64,000 nt of DNA, taken from the NCBI GenBank assembly GCA_026683435.1, contig GCA_026683435.1_4866.1; one strand, 5' to 3'. Source of the DNA: a phage. The position numbers and the translations under genes were made by a program. Positions 11,387 through 38,009 of this stretch are shown in pieces; the first letter of the stretch is position 1; every line of letters starts with the position of its first letter. The notes beneath the pieces were generated by a model. That model saw nothing but the letters and a program-made list of their open reading frames with translations, was not told the DNA's origin and did not search any database.

Positions 11387-12214
11387 TTAGCTGTTATAGT
11401 GGTAGTACGCCACGCCTTTCACGCCTTCCTCATCGATACCCGTTTGGACAACCACGCGGTCGTACGATTTGTTAGCGAACTGAGCGGTGGATGTCGGCAC
11501 ATCCTGAACGGTGTTACTGTTCAGTGGCCCCGCGTAGTTCGGAATACCCAGGTCATCCAACACCTTACGCAAACCAGCCCACTGCGGTAGGCCAGAAGCA
11601 TCTACTGTCAGTAGGTTTTTATACGCGGTAAAGTCAATACCGTACGTCAACAAATCAATACACTTCTTACCGAGAGACGGTGAAATAGGCTCTTGAATCG
11701 CATTCAAGACATCCGATTTCACCGAAGTGTCTAGTACCGGTAAACCACGGTTATAACGCAACGTCGCAGAACCGATATAAGCCGGAGATGTCGATAGCGC
11801 TACGATGTTCTGTGTATTGGTGTAATTTGGGGTATTGGGACCCGCCAGTGGGAGGTTATAGATATCGATTGCAGAGAAGTTTACTCCGTAAGTATCCAAG
11901 AGCACCGAAAAGGCTGAGTGGAGGTTGGGAGCGTCAAACGTGACGAACTGCGCCTGGACAGAAGGACCCCACGGCAATAACCGCGCTAAGTTCACACGGT
12001 CGTAGTAAACGGTGATTGCGTCTCGAAATCCAGAACCCTGAATACCGCGCAAGCGTGCCGACGTATTGCGGTTGTTGGAAGCTGCATTAACGGGAACCTG
12101 TGTCACTTTCTCCACGTAGCAGTTTGCCGGCGACGCTTTAATAGGTAGGTTTGGGTTATCCCGGTTAATGAGGTCAAAGACCAACTCGTTTGACGGCTTA
12201 GCATAGTTGATCAT
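11387..12214 (-). CDS. N-module paralog, 275 aa, C-terminal YYHYNS (C-type end motif)
   Basis: Track start 12217 is TTG; ATG at 12214, 4 nt after upstream stop. MINYAKPSNELVFDLINRDNP...NNRNTSARLRGIQGSGFRDAITVYYDRVNLARLL. Confidence 0.6.
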   Translation of the reverse strand: MINYAKPSNELVFDLINRDNPNLPIKASPANCYVEKVTQVPVNAASNNRNTSARLRGIQGSGFRDAITVYYDRVNLARLLPWGPSVQAQFVTFDAPNLHSAFSVLLDTYGVNFSAIDIYNLPLAGPNTPNYTNTQNIVALSTSPAYIGSATLRYNRGLPVLDTSVKSDVLNAIQEPISPSLGKKCIDLLTYGIDFTAYKNLLTVDASGLPQWAGLRKVLDDLGIPNYAGPLNSNTVQDVPTSTAQFANKSYDRVVVQTGIDEEGVKGVAYYHYNS

Positions 12215-12217
12215 CAA

Positions 12218-13105
12218 TTATACCTCGCTTGGATCGTCCAGATCGTTGAACTGGAGATACAACGTTCCGACGATGGTGGTACAGGTAACAGGCAGTTTCA
12301 ACACCAGCGCATACTTGTACTTCGCGTTTGTCGGCATTGCAACAGGGTCATTCAGACCAACGCTGATAACCTCCGCGCCCGCCAAACCGTAGGAAGCGGA
12401 AGTGGTCGCTACCCATGCAGTACCCGTGATATCTTTCAGCAGGTTAACCATATCCGTCAACGGCTGTCCAGACAGAATACCCGGCTTGTATGCCAGCAGA
12501 GCATCTCGGTACTTAGTGAAGTTGTACGGGTAGGAATAGACCTCTGCAATGACCGCAGTAACATTTTCGGAACCCATCTGACCGTTCGGGTATTTCAGAC
12601 CGGTCAGGACGTTAGTAGTGACCGCAGAGACTAACGACTCATCGCCTTTCACGACTTTAAATGTCGCCTGTCCAACCCAACCGATAGACTCTGGATGTGC
12701 AACAACACGCACAGTACCTTCGGTCTTATCACCGTTCCATTCGATATCTGCGTCCTGCAGGTCAGCTTCTTCCAGAACAAAACCGTAACGTTGGTTCAGT
12801 CCAGGAATGGCCGCATACAAGGTTTCGTTGGATGGGCCGATCGCCAACGTGTCACCAATCAACACTAACAAGTCTTCGACTTTCATGCGGTTGTAGAAGA
12901 CATTTTTCTTACCCGACCAGGTAGAGCCCGTTACCCCATCTGCCGTAATTTTAATTTGCGTGTTACGGTTAGTCAGCGTTTCCTTTTCCGTACCACGGAT
13001 GTCCTTTGGCGTGGACCAGATGATGTCAGTCATCTTAACAGCAAGCGAGTTCTGTGCGTTCACTGCTGCCAACAGGACGTCTTTAGAAGGTTGATAAATA
13101 GCCAT
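12218..13105 (-). CDS. N-module paralog C-type, 295 aa
   Basis: MAIYQPSKD...TNRNTQIKITADGVTGSTWSGKKNVFYNRMKVEDLL...RYGFVLEEADL; C-terminal LYLQFNDLDDPSEV. Confidence 0.6.
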   Translation of the reverse strand: MAIYQPSKDVLLAAVNAQNSLAVKMTDIIWSTPKDIRGTEKETLTNRNTQIKITADGVTGSTWSGKKNVFYNRMKVEDLLVLIGDTLAIGPSNETLYAAIPGLNQRYGFVLEEADLQDADIEWNGDKTEGTVRVVAHPESIGWVGQATFKVVKGDESLVSAVTTNVLTGLKYPNGQMGSENVTAVIAEVYSYPYNFTKYRDALLAYKPGILSGQPLTDMVNLLKDITGTAWVATTSASYGLAGAEVISVGLNDPVAMPTNAKYKYALVLKLPVTCTTIVGTLYLQFNDLDDPSEV

Positions 13106-31863: not shown

Positions 31864-32154
31864 TTACGCCGTTACCGGAACAGGGGTGATTAACAGCTCC
31901 CCTTCCACCTCACGTAACTGATAACCGTACATAACGTTGTAGGATTTAATGCCGTCGCGCTGTTTGGCTTTCGCGACGAGCTTTTCCAACACGCGACTAT
32001 GTGCACGAGTCATCTCTTCTTTCGAATAAACAACTTGGAGTACGTGCTGTTCGTCAATAACGGCACGGAACTGCATTACGTCGCCATCCTCAACGTTGTA
32101 AACGACTTCTTTAGACTTCGACACTGTACGATTAATTTGCATTATTTTCTCCAT
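31864..32154 (-). CDS. hypothetical protein (96 aa)
   Basis: ORF track. Confidence 0.55.
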   Translation of the reverse strand: MEKIMQINRTVSKSKEVVYNVEDGDVMQFRAVIDEQHVLQVVYSKEEMTRAHSRVLEKLVAKAKQRDGIKSYNVMYGYQLREVEGELLITPVPVTA

Positions 32155-32944
32155 TAGTAGTTTTCAGGGCACGTCCGTACACATAACTTTCGGGTAGCCA
32201 ACCGTTTTCTAATAACCACATTGCGGCTGGTCCCCCAGTATATTGGTGGTAAGTGTAAACTAATTCATCCCCCACCGGTAATTCAGACTGGATACAATGC
32301 ATCAACAGTCCGAACTCCTCTCGAGTTAGAGTAACCACCCCTTCTGCGGTAAACCATCCACCAATAACCCAGCGTTGTCCACGATGTGAGAGCACTGTCA
32401 ACTTGTAGCTATCAGCGTTTCGCCACGACATCAGCCTCCCACCCATGACAAGCGTTGAGTAGATTGAGCTTGTACCGTAAAGCATCCTAACCCAATCCAA
32501 GAACGCTTTCTTACTATCGAACAACGAACTGACATCCCCACAGAAATCCTCATCGTGGCTAGGCACCGATGAATTAATTTTGCGGTAGTTTATCGTTTCG
32601 CAACAAAAGCCCATGCGAGCATATTCGTCCCCTTCAGAACGAGTAAAATGCATCGCGTAGTTACGCCCAGCTGCACGAAGTAAGGAATCCGCAAGCGAGG
32701 TTAACTGGGCGTCTAAAGCACGAACCATATTGATAACTTCTAACATGTATCCGTGGTCCAGACAGAGCACGATCGCATCAGGCGCAACTGTGTCCCGACT
32801 GAAAACTTCAAAGATTCGGTAGTAAAGACGACGTTCATCTTGTAACGTGGAAGGATCGATATCATTTAACAACGATAACGCTTTACGGTCTTCCAACCAC
32901 GTTCGGTCCAGAATCCTCTCCGTGCGTTCGATAACTCTCAGCAT
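32132..32944 (-). CDS. hypothetical protein (270 aa)
   Basis: ORF track. Confidence 0.6.
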   Translation of the reverse strand: MLRVIERTERILDRTWLEDRKALSLLNDIDPSTLQDERRLYYRIFEVFSRDTVAPDAIVLCLDHGYMLEVINMVRALDAQLTSLADSLLRAAGRNYAMHFTRSEGDEYARMGFCCETINYRKINSSVPSHDEDFCGDVSSLFDSKKAFLDWVRMLYGTSSIYSTLVMGGRLMSWRNADSYKLTVLSHRGQRWVIGGWFTAEGVVTLTREEFGLLMHCIQSELPVGDELVYTYHQYTGGPAAMWLLENGWLPESYVYGRALKTTNGENNAN

Positions 32945-32953
32945 ATTCTCTCC

Positions 32954-33757
32954 TTACGCAAGGGTGTAGTGATGCGTGATTACACGATACTCTAACCCAT
33001 CGATAGAAGGAAACTCGTGCTCTATCGCAACACCCATGTTGACCTTCTTACCTTTCTGTCCCGCCAAATGCAAAATGGCGTGGTAGTGTTTTAGAAACTC
33101 TACCGAGTAGGCAATCGGGTCAAAAGTTTGGCAGCAGAATTGCTCAGTAATGATGCTCTTCGGGAACTCCTTATAAAGCATTAATGAAAACGGTTTCTGA
33201 CCGTGCAACCCCACGAACGCAGAGACAAAACCATTTGCTAATTCACCCAACATCTCACGCGTTCCTGCGTCTTTTAGCGTAGGTCGCATTAGATAGCAAA
33301 CATCTTGGGTTTGTTCTAATGACAATGTCTCCAACGGGACAACCGATGGGTCTGACGTAAAACCGTATTTCGGACTGACAGTAATCTCCACACGCTTCGT
33401 TACAGCTTCGAACCCCAGACGTTGGTACAATGCCGCATGTTCGGTGTCATGCGGAAAACAGGTAATATCAAGCATCTGCACTTCCAGGAGTCGCGTTAAA
33501 CGCTTCCACTCGTGGAACAGGGGCTCGGAAAGCACGTGCAACTCGTAGATGTAGTAAACAATACCTGAACGACATCCACGAAAATACATTTGCGCACGAC
33601 CGCTATTGCTCAACACTAACCAATGATCGTCTTCTTGGTCTGCGACGGGTCGCAAATCTTGAATCCGTTCACGGAGTTGCCCCAAGGTGGTCAATCGACC
33701 ACTAAACTCTACGGTCAGGTCATTTTTGTCCATACCGTATAGATTAAATAGTTGCAT
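32954..33757 (-). CDS. hypothetical protein (267 aa), possible GNAT-like N-terminal half
   Basis: ...TEHAALYQRLGFEAV resembles a GNAT C-terminal motif; weak. Confidence 0.5.
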   Translation of the reverse strand: MQLFNLYGMDKNDLTVEFSGRLTTLGQLRERIQDLRPVADQEDDHWLVLSNSGRAQMYFRGCRSGIVYYIYELHVLSEPLFHEWKRLTRLLEVQMLDITCFPHDTEHAALYQRLGFEAVTKRVEITVSPKYGFTSDPSVVPLETLSLEQTQDVCYLMRPTLKDAGTREMLGELANGFVSAFVGLHGQKPFSLMLYKEFPKSIITEQFCCQTFDPIAYSVEFLKHYHAILHLAGQKGKKVNMGVAIEHEFPSIDGLEYRVITHHYTLA

Positions 33758-33766
33758 GTTGGTACC

Positions 33767-34585
33767 TTATAAGGTGCCGATTAGCTCTGTCACCGCTTTA
33801 CGTTTATTCGCATCCGCAGACATATATCGACCTACTTGAACTTCGCGCCAAGTAAAGCCGTAATAAATATCGCGTGTGAGTAACGTATCTGCGTTTGACA
33901 GAACGATCTTATTGCCATCGGCAGCTTGTTGTTTTAAAAGTTTCGCTAACTCGCGGTGGTCAGCTTGTGAAAATTCCTTGCTGTGATACTGCGCATGTTT
34001 AGCCGTATCCGAAAGTGGGATGTATGGCGGGTCAGCGTATATCACTGCGTTAGATGGGCACTTATTTAAGATGTCGCGGAAGTCGGCGCAGAGCAGCTCG
34101 ACGTTGGTTTCCGAACAACGTTTCGCCCACGCCAGAATTTCCTCTTCAGGGAAATAGACACCGTTCGGATGTTGACCATAAGGCACGTTAAACCCACCCG
34201 ACTGATTGTATCTGCACAAGCCGTTGTAACCATGACGTGTAAGATACAGGAACATCGCAGCGCGCTGGAGATTAGGTTTCCCCGTGGTTGTCTCGCTGTT
34301 AAATTCCTCGCGTCGTTTCATGTACAGACCGCGGTCCGTCCCATTTGCAAAGAGCGCCTTTGCTTCCAGTATCAACGCCTCCGGACGATCGCGCGCCATG
34401 GTCAATAACTCGATTAAGTCCGGGTTCGTGTCGCCGAGAATATAGTTCGGGTATTTAGTGTTTAAAAACACTGACCCTGCACCCACAAACGGTTCAACGA
34501 AATACTCAGCATCTGGAAGCACCTGTAGCAGCTCGGGAAGTACGCGACTCTTACCACCCATCCATTTTAAAATTGGTCTTATCAC
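33767..34585 (-). CDS. dam: DNA adenine methyltransferase (Dam-type, GATC-specific family)
   Basis: KWMGGKSRVLPEL...VEPFVGAGSVFLNT...YILGDTNPDLIEL and IYADPPYIPLS (DPPY motif) closely match E. coli Dam blocks. Confidence 0.9.
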   Translation of the reverse strand: MIRPILKWMGGKSRVLPELLQVLPDAEYFVEPFVGAGSVFLNTKYPNYILGDTNPDLIELLTMARDRPEALILEAKALFANGTDRGLYMKRREEFNSETTTGKPNLQRAAMFLYLTRHGYNGLCRYNQSGGFNVPYGQHPNGVYFPEEEILAWAKRCSETNVELLCADFRDILNKCPSNAVIYADPPYIPLSDTAKHAQYHSKEFSQADHRELAKLLKQQAADGNKIVLSNADTLLTRDIYYGFTWREVQVGRYMSADANKRKAVTELIGTL

Positions 34586-34591
34586 CCGTTA

Positions 34592-35620
34592 TCATCCTCT
34601 CATGCCAGATTGAAACATATCACTGATAGTCAGCCTGGTTGTAGTCTCCACCGGAATGCTAGGTTCTTCTTTCAGCACTCGATCGGCGCGGTTCCCATTC
34701 ACCCGTTTCCAGCTAATAAGTTCAGGATCGCGTTTCAACGTTAGTGTACGCAGTACCTGCTTGCAACGTAAGATGTTACCGTACAGGTGATTTGCTGGAT
34801 TATTATCAGCAGCTGTTTCAATATAGACTTGGTCGGAATGACGTTGTGCGAAATCGAACAGCGCGCCCATTAGCCGGCGACCAATGCCACGTTTACGATG
34901 CGTAGGTGCAACCGTCAAGCCAGAGAGTTCAACGACGCCTGGCGCGACCAAACGCATTTGGGCAATGCCGACGATATCACGACCGTCTCGCCAAATCGCG
35001 GTTTCCACATTAGCGTGCTGAATTCTTGCTATCACGGTTTCTGCCAAAGGACCAATGTGTGTATAATAGCCACGAATGTCATACCCCAGTTCCTCGCAAA
35101 TTGCACCACTGACCAGATTCAGGATAACGTCTTTGTCGTCCTTGGAAAGTTCTGCGTATGCGTCACCAGAAATAATCTTGATTTCCGATGCAGTTATTAC
35201 TTTATCAAACAGTTTAGAATGACATGCCCAGACGATATCTGAAAGAACAAACCCTTTTTCGACCAGTTTTTGTTCAACATCGCCAGTAGGTGCCGGGCAC
35301 GACATATATTCGAAGCCTGTGTGGTCGAGCACAAGGGCTAAACCAACTTTATCGAATGCCCCAGGTACAAACTCCTCAAAATAGTGACAGGTTAGTGTAG
35401 GGTCACCGTGTCGATAGGTGGCCACTAAATAACCCTCCCAGGTTTCTCTATTCCGTACCACGTAAACAGAATAAGTCTCGTCCTTTAGAAACTCTTTTAG
35501 GCGGCGTGCTCGTACAGTATCGCTACCGACGTTATTTTGGAACTCGGCAGAGCGAATGCTGCTGCGGAACAATTTAGCCACAGTTTTCATTGTAATGCCC
35601 TCAAAAGGTAATGCTGTCAC
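34592..35620 (-). CDS. two-domain protein with C-terminal GNAT acetyltransferase domain
   Basis: GNAT motif A LTVAPTHRKRGIGRRLMGALFDFAQ; start may be GTG at 35620 or ATG at 35590. Confidence 0.65.
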   Translation of the reverse strand: MTALPFEGITMKTVAKLFRSSIRSAEFQNNVGSDTVRARRLKEFLKDETYSVYVVRNRETWEGYLVATYRHGDPTLTCHYFEEFVPGAFDKVGLALVLDHTGFEYMSCPAPTGDVEQKLVEKGFVLSDIVWACHSKLFDKVITASEIKIISGDAYAELSKDDKDVILNLVSGAICEELGYDIRGYYTHIGPLAETVIARIQHANVETAIWRDGRDIVGIAQMRLVAPGVVELSGLTVAPTHRKRGIGRRLMGALFDFAQRHSDQVYIETAADNNPANHLYGNILRCKQVLRTLTLKRDPELISWKRVNGNRADRVLKEEPSIPVETTTRLTISDMFQSGMRG

Positions 35621-35640
35621 AACATGAGGATAATGCGTAA

Positions 35641-35677
35641 AAAGACAAAAAATTAAGGGGTCCGAAGACCCCTTAAT
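35641..35677 (-). terminator. hairpin terminator after gene 35680..36336
   Basis: ttaaggggtc-cgaa-gaccccttaa preceded (plus) by aaaaagacaaaaaa. Confidence 0.7.
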
Positions 35678-35679
35678 GA

Positions 35680-36336
35680 TTACAGTTCAGGTTTGGAGAC
35701 AAGCGCCGTCCAAGTTTCAGAATGTTTGATACTGACGTGCGCCAAGCGATTCACCATGAACGCAAATTTGTCCATATGCTTCTGCACTTCGTTATCAGTC
35801 AGATTACCAGCGATAACTTTACCGTCTTTGGTCAGCACGATATAACCGTGGTTGTTGTCTACAGTAGTAAACGCCACGTCAATCGTAACTGGGTACAGTT
35901 TCACCAGCGTCGGCAGAATATGACCAACACGATCCGCCATACCCGCAAGCTGACCACAAAGGTCGGCTTTATCCTGCATGAACAAACGCAACATCGCTAC
36001 TGCAAACACCGGATAGATGTTTTCGATTTGCGTGTCGTAACGAGACAGACCGATAACTTCATCACCACGGGTTAGCACCATGTTGTTCAGATGCGCGCCT
36101 TTATAGATGGTAAAGCGTACGTCGCTACCAAGGTTAACCGCAACGATTTCCTGACCAAGGTCAATCGGATATTCGCGCTCGATGTGAATTGTTTTCAGAC
36201 GTTCACTGATTGGTACAATTACATCCGGTTTAGGAATGGTAGGTGGGCGTGGAGATTCGGTAGTACGCGTTTTTGTGGCTTTAATCGCGTTGCTTGCCGT
36301 TGAATCTTTTGCTACAGTTTTAGGGGCCTTCGCCAT
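35680..36336 (-). CDS. hypothetical protein (218 aa), N-terminus MAKAPK
   Basis: Track ORF extends to 36414; ATG at 36336 with AAGGAG SD. Confidence 0.6.
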   Translation of the reverse strand: MAKAPKTVAKDSTASNAIKATKTRTTESPRPPTIPKPDVIVPISERLKTIHIEREYPIDLGQEIVAVNLGSDVRFTIYKGAHLNNMVLTRGDEVIGLSRYDTQIENIYPVFAVAMLRLFMQDKADLCGQLAGMADRVGHILPTLVKLYPVTIDVAFTTVDNNHGYIVLTKDGKVIAGNLTDNEVQKHMDKFAFMVNRLAHVSIKHSETWTALVSKPEL

Positions 36337-36358: not shown

Positions 36359-36748
36359 TTAGTTATCCCAGAAAGCTGCTTCTGGAAAGTCGTGTTCAAA
36401 TGCCCGACGGTCATTCTCTACACGGTTTAAATGTGTCGGTAAAGACACACAGTTATTACAGATACAAAGTTCTTTATCCCCTTGACTGGGGTCAAAGTCG
36501 TGCCATTTCCACTCAACAGTATCCCGTTTCGGGAAGGTACCTTTGCAATCGTCGCAGACCACTTCTTCAGCTGCAATTTCAGCCTGCAGTTTTTCCCAGC
36601 AGTCTTCGCACATGTAATACGTTTCGCGGCCCCATGGGTCGCACTCTGCCGTATAGCGCGGGGCTATAGAGCCCACTTTAAGATGTTTACATCGATCATC
36701 CTCTTCCGTCATCACGCGACGGGTGATACCATTTACAAACCAATTCAT
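36359..36748 (-). CDS. Cys-rich zinc-ribbon protein (129 aa)
   Basis: Multiple CxxC pairs (CEDCW, CDDCKG, CICNNC). Confidence 0.55.
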   Translation of the reverse strand: MNWFVNGITRRVMTEEDDRCKHLKVGSIAPRYTAECDPWGRETYYMCEDCWEKLQAEIAAEEVVCDDCKGTFPKRDTVEWKWHDFDPSQGDKELCICNNCVSLPTHLNRVENDRRAFEHDFPEAAFWDN

Positions 36749-37243: not shown

Positions 37244-37283
37244 TAAAAAAAGACAATACCCTCTTACCCGAAGGTAAGAGGGG
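37244..37283 (-). terminator. hairpin terminator after gene 37289..37912
   Basis: ccctcttacc-cgaa-ggtaagaggg preceded (plus) by aaaaaaagacaa. Confidence 0.7.
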
Positions 37284-37973: not shown

Positions 37974-38009
37974 AAGAAAAAAAATAATAGGCACTCCGAA
38001 GAGTGCCTA
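37974..38009 (-). terminator. hairpin terminator after gene 38016..38780
   Basis: aggcactc-cgaa-gagtgcct preceded (plus) by an A-run. Confidence 0.7.

Follow-up and report, generated by a model that had tools for sequence, protein, structure and literature searches.

Why does a nucleus-forming jumbo phage maintain a Dam gene of its own while its DNA is purged of GATC, and which DNA would such an enzyme methylate? Dam is among the best understood methyltransferases, and a preliminary description had noted a Dam-type adenine methyltransferase gene in a 64,000-nucleotide stretch of phage DNA (GenBank assembly GCA_026683435.1), hereafter called the window. The region shows 95-97% DNA identity to SPN3US and to more than 30 other Seoulvirus genomes, which belong to Salmonella, E. 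coli and Proteus phages and measure about 240 kb. The window is Seoulvirus DNA, from an SPN3US-like, nucleus-forming jumbo phage. SPN3US is a phiKZ-related jumbo phage that has a diverged chimallin homologue, gp244, and for which a shell lattice was observed (PMC9365700); it is on the basis of this homologue and of this lattice that SPN3US is considered nucleus-forming.

In the Seoulvirus group, the gene and its annotation are already known, and so are the enzyme family and its chemistry. The orthologous product has carried the label of a DNA adenine methylase ever since the SPN3US genome; the gene call adds nothing, and nothing in the window sequence points to a new kind of enzyme. The value of the locus is modest and contextual: the SPN3US-like sub-group keeps its Dam under purifying selection while purging GATC, a Dam-less relative within the group purges GATC harder, and the unrelated E. 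coli chimallivirus Goslar does not purge it at all.

Identification and start codon of the Dam gene

The Dam gene corresponds to exactly one ORF of the minus strand in the ORF listing of the window, and it is preceded by a Shine-Dalgarno-like sequence.

33767..34585, minus strand: coding sequence of a Dam-family N6-adenine DNA methyltransferase; 272 aa, GTG start, TAA stop, stop inside the coordinates
34595..34601, minus strand: Shine-Dalgarno-like GAGAGGA, 9 nt 5' of the GTG start; identical in SPN3US

The GTG start is located at 34585, and the stop of the upstream gene lies 6 nt before it. All orthologues keep residues 2-8 (IRPILKW), which also recur at the N-terminus of E. coli Dam, and the orthologue of Erwinia phage Caitlin exhibits an ATG start at the homologous codon. 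Together with the spacing of the GAGAGGA sequence, these observations indicate that the GTG is the correct start. The RefSeq/GenBank CDS of SPN3US comprises 264 aa and starts at an internal ATG (M9), 8 codons late. As a start at M9 would remove K7 and W8, the SPN3US CDS annotation is N-terminally truncated.

Sequence, profile and structural comparisons

Sequence, profile and fold evidence together bear out the assignment of the product as a Dam-type adenine methyltransferase, and the similarity cannot be put down to chance. The protein matches the D12-class family PF02086 of Pfam (E=1.1e-53, 183 bits for a cut-off of 22, profile positions 1-249 of 253) and TIGR00571 'dam' of NCBIfam (258 bits for a cut-off of 115, profile positions 1-264 of 267), as well as PHROG 56 'DNA methyltransferase' (E=1e-91). 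Its top PADLOC model is 'orphan methyltransferase', with 285 bits. With regard to the enterobacterial Dam equivalog NF008152 of NCBIfam, the score of 247 bits is below the cut-off of 441. The window enzyme is a member of the Dam family and not an orthologue of the host-type housekeeping enzyme.

In a phmmer search of PDB sequences, E. coli Dam (2g1p) is the best match, with an E value of 1.5e-58 over residues 3-270, followed by DpnM and then by T4 Dam. The same order is observed for the structures. The AlphaFold2 model, built from 58 homologues, has a pLDDT of 89.3 and a pTM of 0.88, and its top 14 structural matches in the PDB are chains of E. coli Dam (TMq 0.84-0.85, TMt 0.89-0.94, rmsd 1.6-2.8 A), the best of which reach a TMt of 0.93-0.94 with an rmsd of 1.6-1.9 A.

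The window enzyme is 41% identical to E. coli Dam (2G1P, 4RTJ-4RTS) over the full length and shares motifs I and IV with it. It differs by a 4-residue insertion at about aa 99-104 and by the absence of the 10-residue C-terminal tail, and it is phage-borne, whereas E. coli Dam is a housekeeping copy. M.DpnII 1 (DpnM, 2DPM) shares both the subfamily and the fold of the window enzyme (E=3e-40, TM 0.80). The Dam of phages T4 and T2 (1YFJ, 1Q0S) is likewise a phage-encoded orphan GATC N6-adenine methyltransferase of the same Pfam family, but it forms a distant branch with about 22% identity. The 'T4-like' Dam clade is the commonest in jumbo phages (PMC7824862). A Dam of the T4 type was nevertheless rejected for the window, given an E value of 3e-10 and a TM of about 0.73 for T4 Dam versus 1.5e-58 and 0.84-0.94 for E. 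coli Dam; these values place the window enzyme on the E. coli Dam/DpnM branch.

The nearest relatives outside the jumbo phages are the Dam proteins encoded by P2-like temperate phages and by enterobacterial prophages, which are 44-50% identical over the whole methyltransferase domain. These 'Dam family' proteins, such as those of Salmonella phages SW3 and SI7, comprise 309-330 aa and are extended at the C-terminus by about 40-50 Cys-rich aa, a tail that the window enzyme does not have.

Catalytic motifs and GATC-reading residues

The preliminary description had based its assignment on the blocks KWMGGK, EPFVGAGSVFLNT and DPPY, and all three are present in the translation, along with a target-recognition region.

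34550..34567, minus strand: N-terminal KWMGGK loop, aa 7-12; K7 corresponds to K9 of E. coli Dam in the alignment with 2g1p
34457..34495, minus strand: motif I / AdoMet-binding block EPFVGAGSVFLNT, aa 31-43
34169..34228, minus strand: target-recognition hairpin region YNGLCRYNQSGGFNVPYGQH, aa 120-139
34022..34033, minus strand: catalytic motif IV DPPY, aa 185-188 (D185-P-P-Y188)

In the alignment of homologues, K, W, G, G and K of the KWMGGK loop are each conserved in at least 90% of the sequences. E31, P32, F33, V34, G35, F40 and N42 of the motif I block, which contains the FxGxG signature as F33-V-G35-A-G37, are invariant in the 58 homologues, and so is DPPY, which is encoded by GAC CCG CCA TAC, the reverse complement of gtatggcgggtc. 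The order of motif I (aa 33-37), recognition hairpin (aa 120-139) and DPPY (aa 185-188) is the arrangement of the alpha group. We have hardly any doubt that the window enzyme is an N6-adenine DNA methyltransferase of the Dam family, of D12 class and alpha group.

The residues by which E. coli Dam reads its target are well described. R124 makes contact with guanine in the fourth base pair, L122 and P134 with the third base pair, Y119 intercalates and N120 forms hydrogen bonds to bases, while the first base pair is read by K9 and Y138, a contact that varies across the Dam family (PMC4417163). Six of these seven GATC-reading residues are identical in the window enzyme, namely K7, Y120, N121, L123, R125 and P135, which are equivalent to K9, Y119, N120, L122, R124 and P134 of E. 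coli Dam, respectively, and most of them are invariant across the 58 homologues. As these residues are conserved, GATC specificity is a reasonable prediction, and the window enzyme is very probably specific for GATC.

The changes with respect to E. coli Dam are Y138 to H139, which affects the first-base-pair contact, and R137 to Q138. Together with the variability of that contact within the family (PMC4417163) and with the score below the enterobacterial equivalog cut-off, these changes could reflect an enzyme of the same fold with a different or relaxed target, e.g. GATN/NATC or additional non-canonical sites, which would provide a broader protection. Such a change of target appears improbable, as all six of the residues listed above are kept and as the word that is avoided in the genome is GATC itself.

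Gene neighbourhood

The Dam gene is the second gene of a unit on the minus strand, which comprises, in this order, a terminator, a GNAT-like gene, Dam and two genes of unknown function, with gaps of 6-10 nt.

35652..35677, minus strand: strong hairpin resembling an intrinsic terminator, with an 11-bp stem, a TTCG loop and a T-run
34592..35590, minus strand: GNAT-family acetyltransferase-like gene, upstream of Dam; PF00583, E=7e-14
32954..33757, minus strand: 267-aa gene of PHROG 9941, downstream of Dam, 9 nt after the Dam stop
32132..32944, minus strand: 270-aa gene of PHROG 13677, a PHROG without assigned function; next downstream

The hairpin closes the upstream unit, so the unit of the Dam gene begins just after it. 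The GNAT-like gene has a probable ATG at 35590 and encodes 332 aa, as in SPN3US. A scan for sigma-70 promoters gave 6 matches versus 10.5 in shuffled sequences, a result that says little about the unit, as transcription in these phages relies on phage-encoded RNA polymerases.

Neither of the two genes downstream of Dam matches a nuclease, restriction-enzyme or defence model of Pfam, PHROG or PADLOC. Among the five genes around Dam, there is no PADLOC match and the Pfam matches are to GNAT acetyltransferase domains only. As none of these five neighbours matches a nuclease, restriction or defence model, we call the Dam an orphan. This is in contrast with DpnM, which is the GATC N6-adenine methyltransferase of a restriction-modification system and is accompanied by a cognate endonuclease. 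A type II restriction-modification system of the DpnII/MboI type was rejected for the same reason, with no match to restriction-enzyme models in any of the five neighbours, although a nuclease of a novel kind would escape such models.

An all-against-all BLASTP among the neighbours of Dam, which would detect a GNAT-like array of paralogues, gave nothing significant. At the syntenic locus of Cronobacter phage CR5, two GNATs are annotated, and a weak match, of 25%, to the 342-aa protein is observed.

Conservation of the Dam gene in jumbo phages

Phages EC001, SEGD1 and SPFM have an annotated 'DNA adenine methylase' with which the window protein shares 98.9% identity; the value for SPN3US_0105 is 98.2%. 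In all, more than 60 records of related phages already bear this annotation for the gene. SPN3US gp105 (SPN3US_0105 / ACQ60_gp161) and the enzymes of EC001, SEGD1, SPFM, SPLA and JN03 are the same gene as that of the window; these Seoulvirus copies show 96-98.9% protein identity to it, with the same position and the same neighbours, and only the annotation differs. More broadly, orthologues are found at the syntenic position in 63 phage records from several jumbo-phage genera, with 53-99% identity: 85% for SPAsTU/STsAS, 80% for Erwinia phage pEa_SNUABM_29, 69-70% for Asesino/phiEaH2/Stratton, and 53-55% for Wellington, Kwan, ChrisDB, Caitlin, Huxley, Parshik and Machina. A rough neighbour-joining tree shows the jumbo-phage orthologues as monophyletic, inside the gammaproteobacterial Dam family. 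The Dam gene was shown to be vertically inherited within the SPN3US-like jumbo phages.

The comparison with SPN3US reveals 24 synonymous and 4 non-synonymous differences, with a dN/dS of 0.045, which indicates strong purifying selection on the gene. The idea of an inactive relic or of a mis-annotated ORF is extremely improbable in view of this ratio, of the conservation of the gene across genera (53-99% identity), of the intact catalytic and cofactor motifs and of the confident predicted fold. The gene at 33767..34585 is an intact and strongly conserved Dam copy, which is real, ordinary and already known. With regard to the orthologue group of the window protein, no functional or experimental work was found in the literature searched.

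Under-representation of GATC

The preliminary description had proposed to compare the number of GATC sites with expectation. This count was carried out and GATC is strongly under-represented in the window, with 122 sites versus 249 expected from base composition and 299 expected from a maximal-order Markov model (z=-14). Among the 16 palindromic tetramers, GATC is the most depleted in the window. When synonymous codons were permuted within each of 80 ORFs, which keeps both the protein sequence and the codon usage, 115 sites were observed versus 253 expected (O/E 0.45, z=-12). Codon usage and protein sequence were thereby rejected as the source of the depletion. As the depletion survives synonymous shuffling, selection acts on the GATC word in the DNA itself. 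The depletion is uneven, with a GATC O/E of 0.39 at 1-52 kb versus 0.73 in the block of capsid, helicase and polymerase genes at 52-64 kb. It fits past selection by something acting on GATC, and it does not, on its own, reveal the purpose of the enzyme.

The remaining sites, about one per 525 bp in the window, could in principle serve a regulatory or packaging function, in which the methylation of particular GATC sites would time a step of the phage cycle. Phage P1 provides a precedent, since Dam-methylated GATC in its pac is needed for packaging and its phage-borne methylase Dmt is required for pac methylation in dam-minus hosts (PMC12707154). Dmt is a detectable homologue of the window enzyme, its Dam-like part being 34% identical, and Dam-dependent promoters offer a second model. 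Moreover, strong avoidance leaves few GATC sites, which might make the leftovers informative. Nevertheless, no P1-pac-like cluster of GATC is found in the 64-kb window, which represents about a quarter of the genome: gaps of at most 40 nt number 13 versus 9.0 expected (P=0.1), and the densest 200 bp contain at most 4 sites (P=0.5). As the sites are not clustered, the timing of packaging or replication, which the preliminary description had named as a typical role of phage Dam homologues, is without support in the window. In addition, only 8 of the 122 sites lie outside ORFs, and the Derbicusvirus relatives do without the Dam gene. We consider a regulatory or packaging role improbable.

Comparison with other phages

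The synonymous-shuffle O/E for GATC was also determined for six genomes sampled beside the window.

SPN3US, 150-200 kb: Dam present; GATC O/E 0.48
Caitlin: Dam present, 54% identical; GATC O/E 0.32
Asesino: Dam present, 70% identical; GATC O/E 0.24
Cronobacter phage CR5 (Derbicusvirus), whole genome: Dam absent; GATC O/E 0.18, z=-28
EarlPhillipIV (genus of CR5), 50 kb: Dam absent from the syntenic locus; GATC O/E 0.20
E. coli chimallivirus Goslar, whole genome: no Dam; GATC O/E 0.95

In CR5, the syntenic locus reads tmk-GNAT-GNAT-hyp, and neither HMM nor tblastn searches identified an ORF of the Dam family. GATC avoidance, with an O/E of 0.18-0.48, is a trait of the whole SPN3US-like group that is independent of the Dam gene, and, as Goslar illustrates, it is not general among enterobacterial nucleus-forming phages. 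The phage Dam was rejected as the cause of the avoidance, as the Dam-less CR5 and EarlPhillipIV avoid GATC at least as strongly as the phages that carry it. The O/E values are 0.18 and 0.20 for the Dam-minus phages versus 0.24, 0.32 and 0.39-0.48 for the Dam-plus ones, and this weak trend, in five related lineages, hints at a relaxation of GATC avoidance by Dam.

This double contrast, between Seoulvirus and its relatives on the one hand and Goslar on the other, and between Dam-plus and Dam-minus phages, is a small new observation. It offers a cheap and testable handle on the question of whether the phage nuclei of different lineages shield DNA from GATC-directed host enzymes, and it also bears on whether host Dam gains access to phage DNA within the shell. 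As for AATT, it is depleted in every phage tested, Goslar included, and its depletion is therefore regarded as generic.

Possible roles of the phage Dam

GATC avoidance in enterobacteriophages has been recognised for a long time and was attributed to MutH, which acts on unmethylated GATC, an attribution that goes back to McClelland 1984 and to Deschavanne & Radman 1991, according to which phage DNA outruns a limiting host Dam (PMC5014478). Phage orphan methyltransferases are viewed as a protective 'Trojan horse' modification (PMC12707154). Modification genes are uncommon in nucleus-forming (Chimalliviridae) phages (PMC7824862, PMC13282480), and it was proposed that these rare genes may protect the DNA right after entry (Iyer et al., PMC7824862).

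On balance, we lean towards protective self-methylation of the remaining GATC sites as the main role of the window enzyme. By analogy with E. coli Dam, the enzyme would flip the adenine of 5'-GATC-3' into the DPPY pocket and, in an AdoMet-dependent reaction, produce N6-methyladenine at GATC. Its substrate would be the phage's own replicating DNA, at the leftover GATC sites, and the progeny genomes would be fully methylated whatever the supply of host Dam. Host Dam is limiting for fast-replicating phage DNA and is probably excluded from the chimallin 'phage nucleus' of SPN3US-type phages, inside which its supply may be nil. Full methylation would shield the DNA from cleavage at un- or hemimethylated GATC, namely by MutH of mismatch repair and by restriction enzymes of the MboI/DpnII type. 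The most economical view is that a single pressure on GATC has been met in two ways, by avoidance of the word and by a Dam of the phage's own.

Several observations sit uneasily with protection. Full shielding should relax avoidance, yet the Dam-carrying genomes avoid GATC (O/E 0.24-0.48). A protective methylase also seems redundant if host nucleases are kept out by the chimallin shell anyway, and the Dam-less chimallivirus Goslar shows no avoidance (0.95). With regard to the hosts, Salmonella, E. coli and Erwinia are Dam-positive, so GATC-cutting restriction enzymes that Dam methylation stops pose no obvious threat in these hosts.

The location of the enzyme with respect to the shell matters for a further role, which would be directed at the host. 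Over-methylation of the host chromosome or of competing DNA could, in the course of takeover, disable methyl-directed mismatch repair, control through SeqA/oriC or genes regulated by Dam; over-production of Dam gives a mutator phenotype in E. coli (PMC5014478), and, if the enzyme is cytoplasmic and the phage DNA is in the shell, host DNA would be its sole substrate. The host is already Dam-methylated, so any extra effect would be small, and this role leaves the selection on the phage's own GATC content unexplained. It therefore seems doubtful, to much the same degree as a change of target.

A more elaborate reading supposes that import brings the phage Dam into the chimallin compartment, as host Dam is excluded from it, and that the clade-wide avoidance marks a stage, not shared by Goslar, at which the DNA is exposed to a GATC-directed host activity, for example that of MutH, of SeqA or of a methyl-dependent nuclease like DpnI. 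We regard this combination as rather unlikely, if less so than the host-directed role. If it were true, Dam and GATC avoidance would together provide a read-out of the leakiness of the phage nucleus.

Returning to protective self-methylation by a GATC-specific enzyme, the DNA of SPN3US-type phages is predicted to be DpnI-sensitive and MboI/DpnII-resistant, even when it is prepared from dam-minus hosts. This predicted behaviour is relevant to cloning and to methylation-aware sequencing.

Tetranucleotide avoidance in the window and in related phages

The avoidance of GATC is not uniform along the window. Between 52000 and 64000, a block of core genes encoding the major capsid protein, a virion protein, a polymerase and a DnaB-like helicase, the observed/expected ratio (O/E) is 0.73, against 0.39 in the remaining window, so avoidance is much weaker in this block. 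The densest GATC spot lies at 12209-12245, with three sites in 37 nt (GATCATCAATTATACCTCGCTTGGATCGTCCAGATC), which is compatible with chance given the 122 sites in the window.

AATT was under-represented in all jumbo phages tested, namely the window and four other phages, when assessed by synonymous-codon shuffling. The O/E was 0.58 in both the window and SPN3US (L010), 0.45 in Caitlin (L003+L009), 0.60 in CR5 (L011) and 0.66 in Goslar (L004-L008). In contrast to GATC, AATT depletion does not tell the lineages apart. CTAG is likewise low, with an O/E of 0.24 based on base composition.

The Dam locus and its annotation in relatives

In Derbicusvirus, the syntenic locus comprises, in order, genes for thymidylate kinase, a first GNAT, a second GNAT and a hypothetical protein, and Dam is absent:

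CR5, L011 24110-26712, Dam-less syntenic locus
EarlPhillipIV, L018 4760-7377, Dam-less syntenic locus

Asesino carries Dam but lacks the GNAT gene upstream of it. Dam and the adjacent GNAT gene can thus occur one without the other.

In public annotations, the CDSs of two Dam orthologues are truncated at the N-terminus:

SPN3US, L001 6768-7562, ACQ60_gp161, annotated start at an internal ATG, 8 codons late
Asesino, L017 8342-9073, gp121, annotated from 98342 with homology beginning at 98255

The order of the 60-nt sequence lines appears to be reversed in the GenBank records of several SPFM phages, which are also Seoulvirus: LR535903 (SPFM5), LR535907 (SPFM9) and those of SPFM8, SPFM12, SPFM15 and SPFM20. 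Against these records, the megablast match of window 33000-36000 is fragmented, with 40 separate segments that are each some 60 nt long. As 60 is divisible by 3, the reading frame is kept, and two related-record proteins annotated as hypothetical (P0027 and P0049; 282 and 242 aa) consist of the Dam sequence in 20-aa blocks arranged in reverse order. These records, with their seemingly reversed lines, and the block-scrambled Dam proteins derived from them are a database artefact.

The minus-strand gene array

At three places, the minus-strand gene array of the window is punctuated by a strong terminator-like hairpin that has a TTCG tetraloop and then a T-run. These hairpins are listed here together with a 129-aa ORF:

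35652-35677, minus strand, terminator-like hairpin
36359-36748, minus strand, 129-aa ORF
37259-37282, minus strand, terminator-like hairpin
37988-38009, minus strand, terminator-like hairpin

The product of the 129-aa ORF gave no match in a Pfam search and matches PHROG 8344, a family of unknown function. It exhibits several CxxC pairs (CEDCWEKL, CDDCKG and CICNNC) and is probably a zinc-binding protein.
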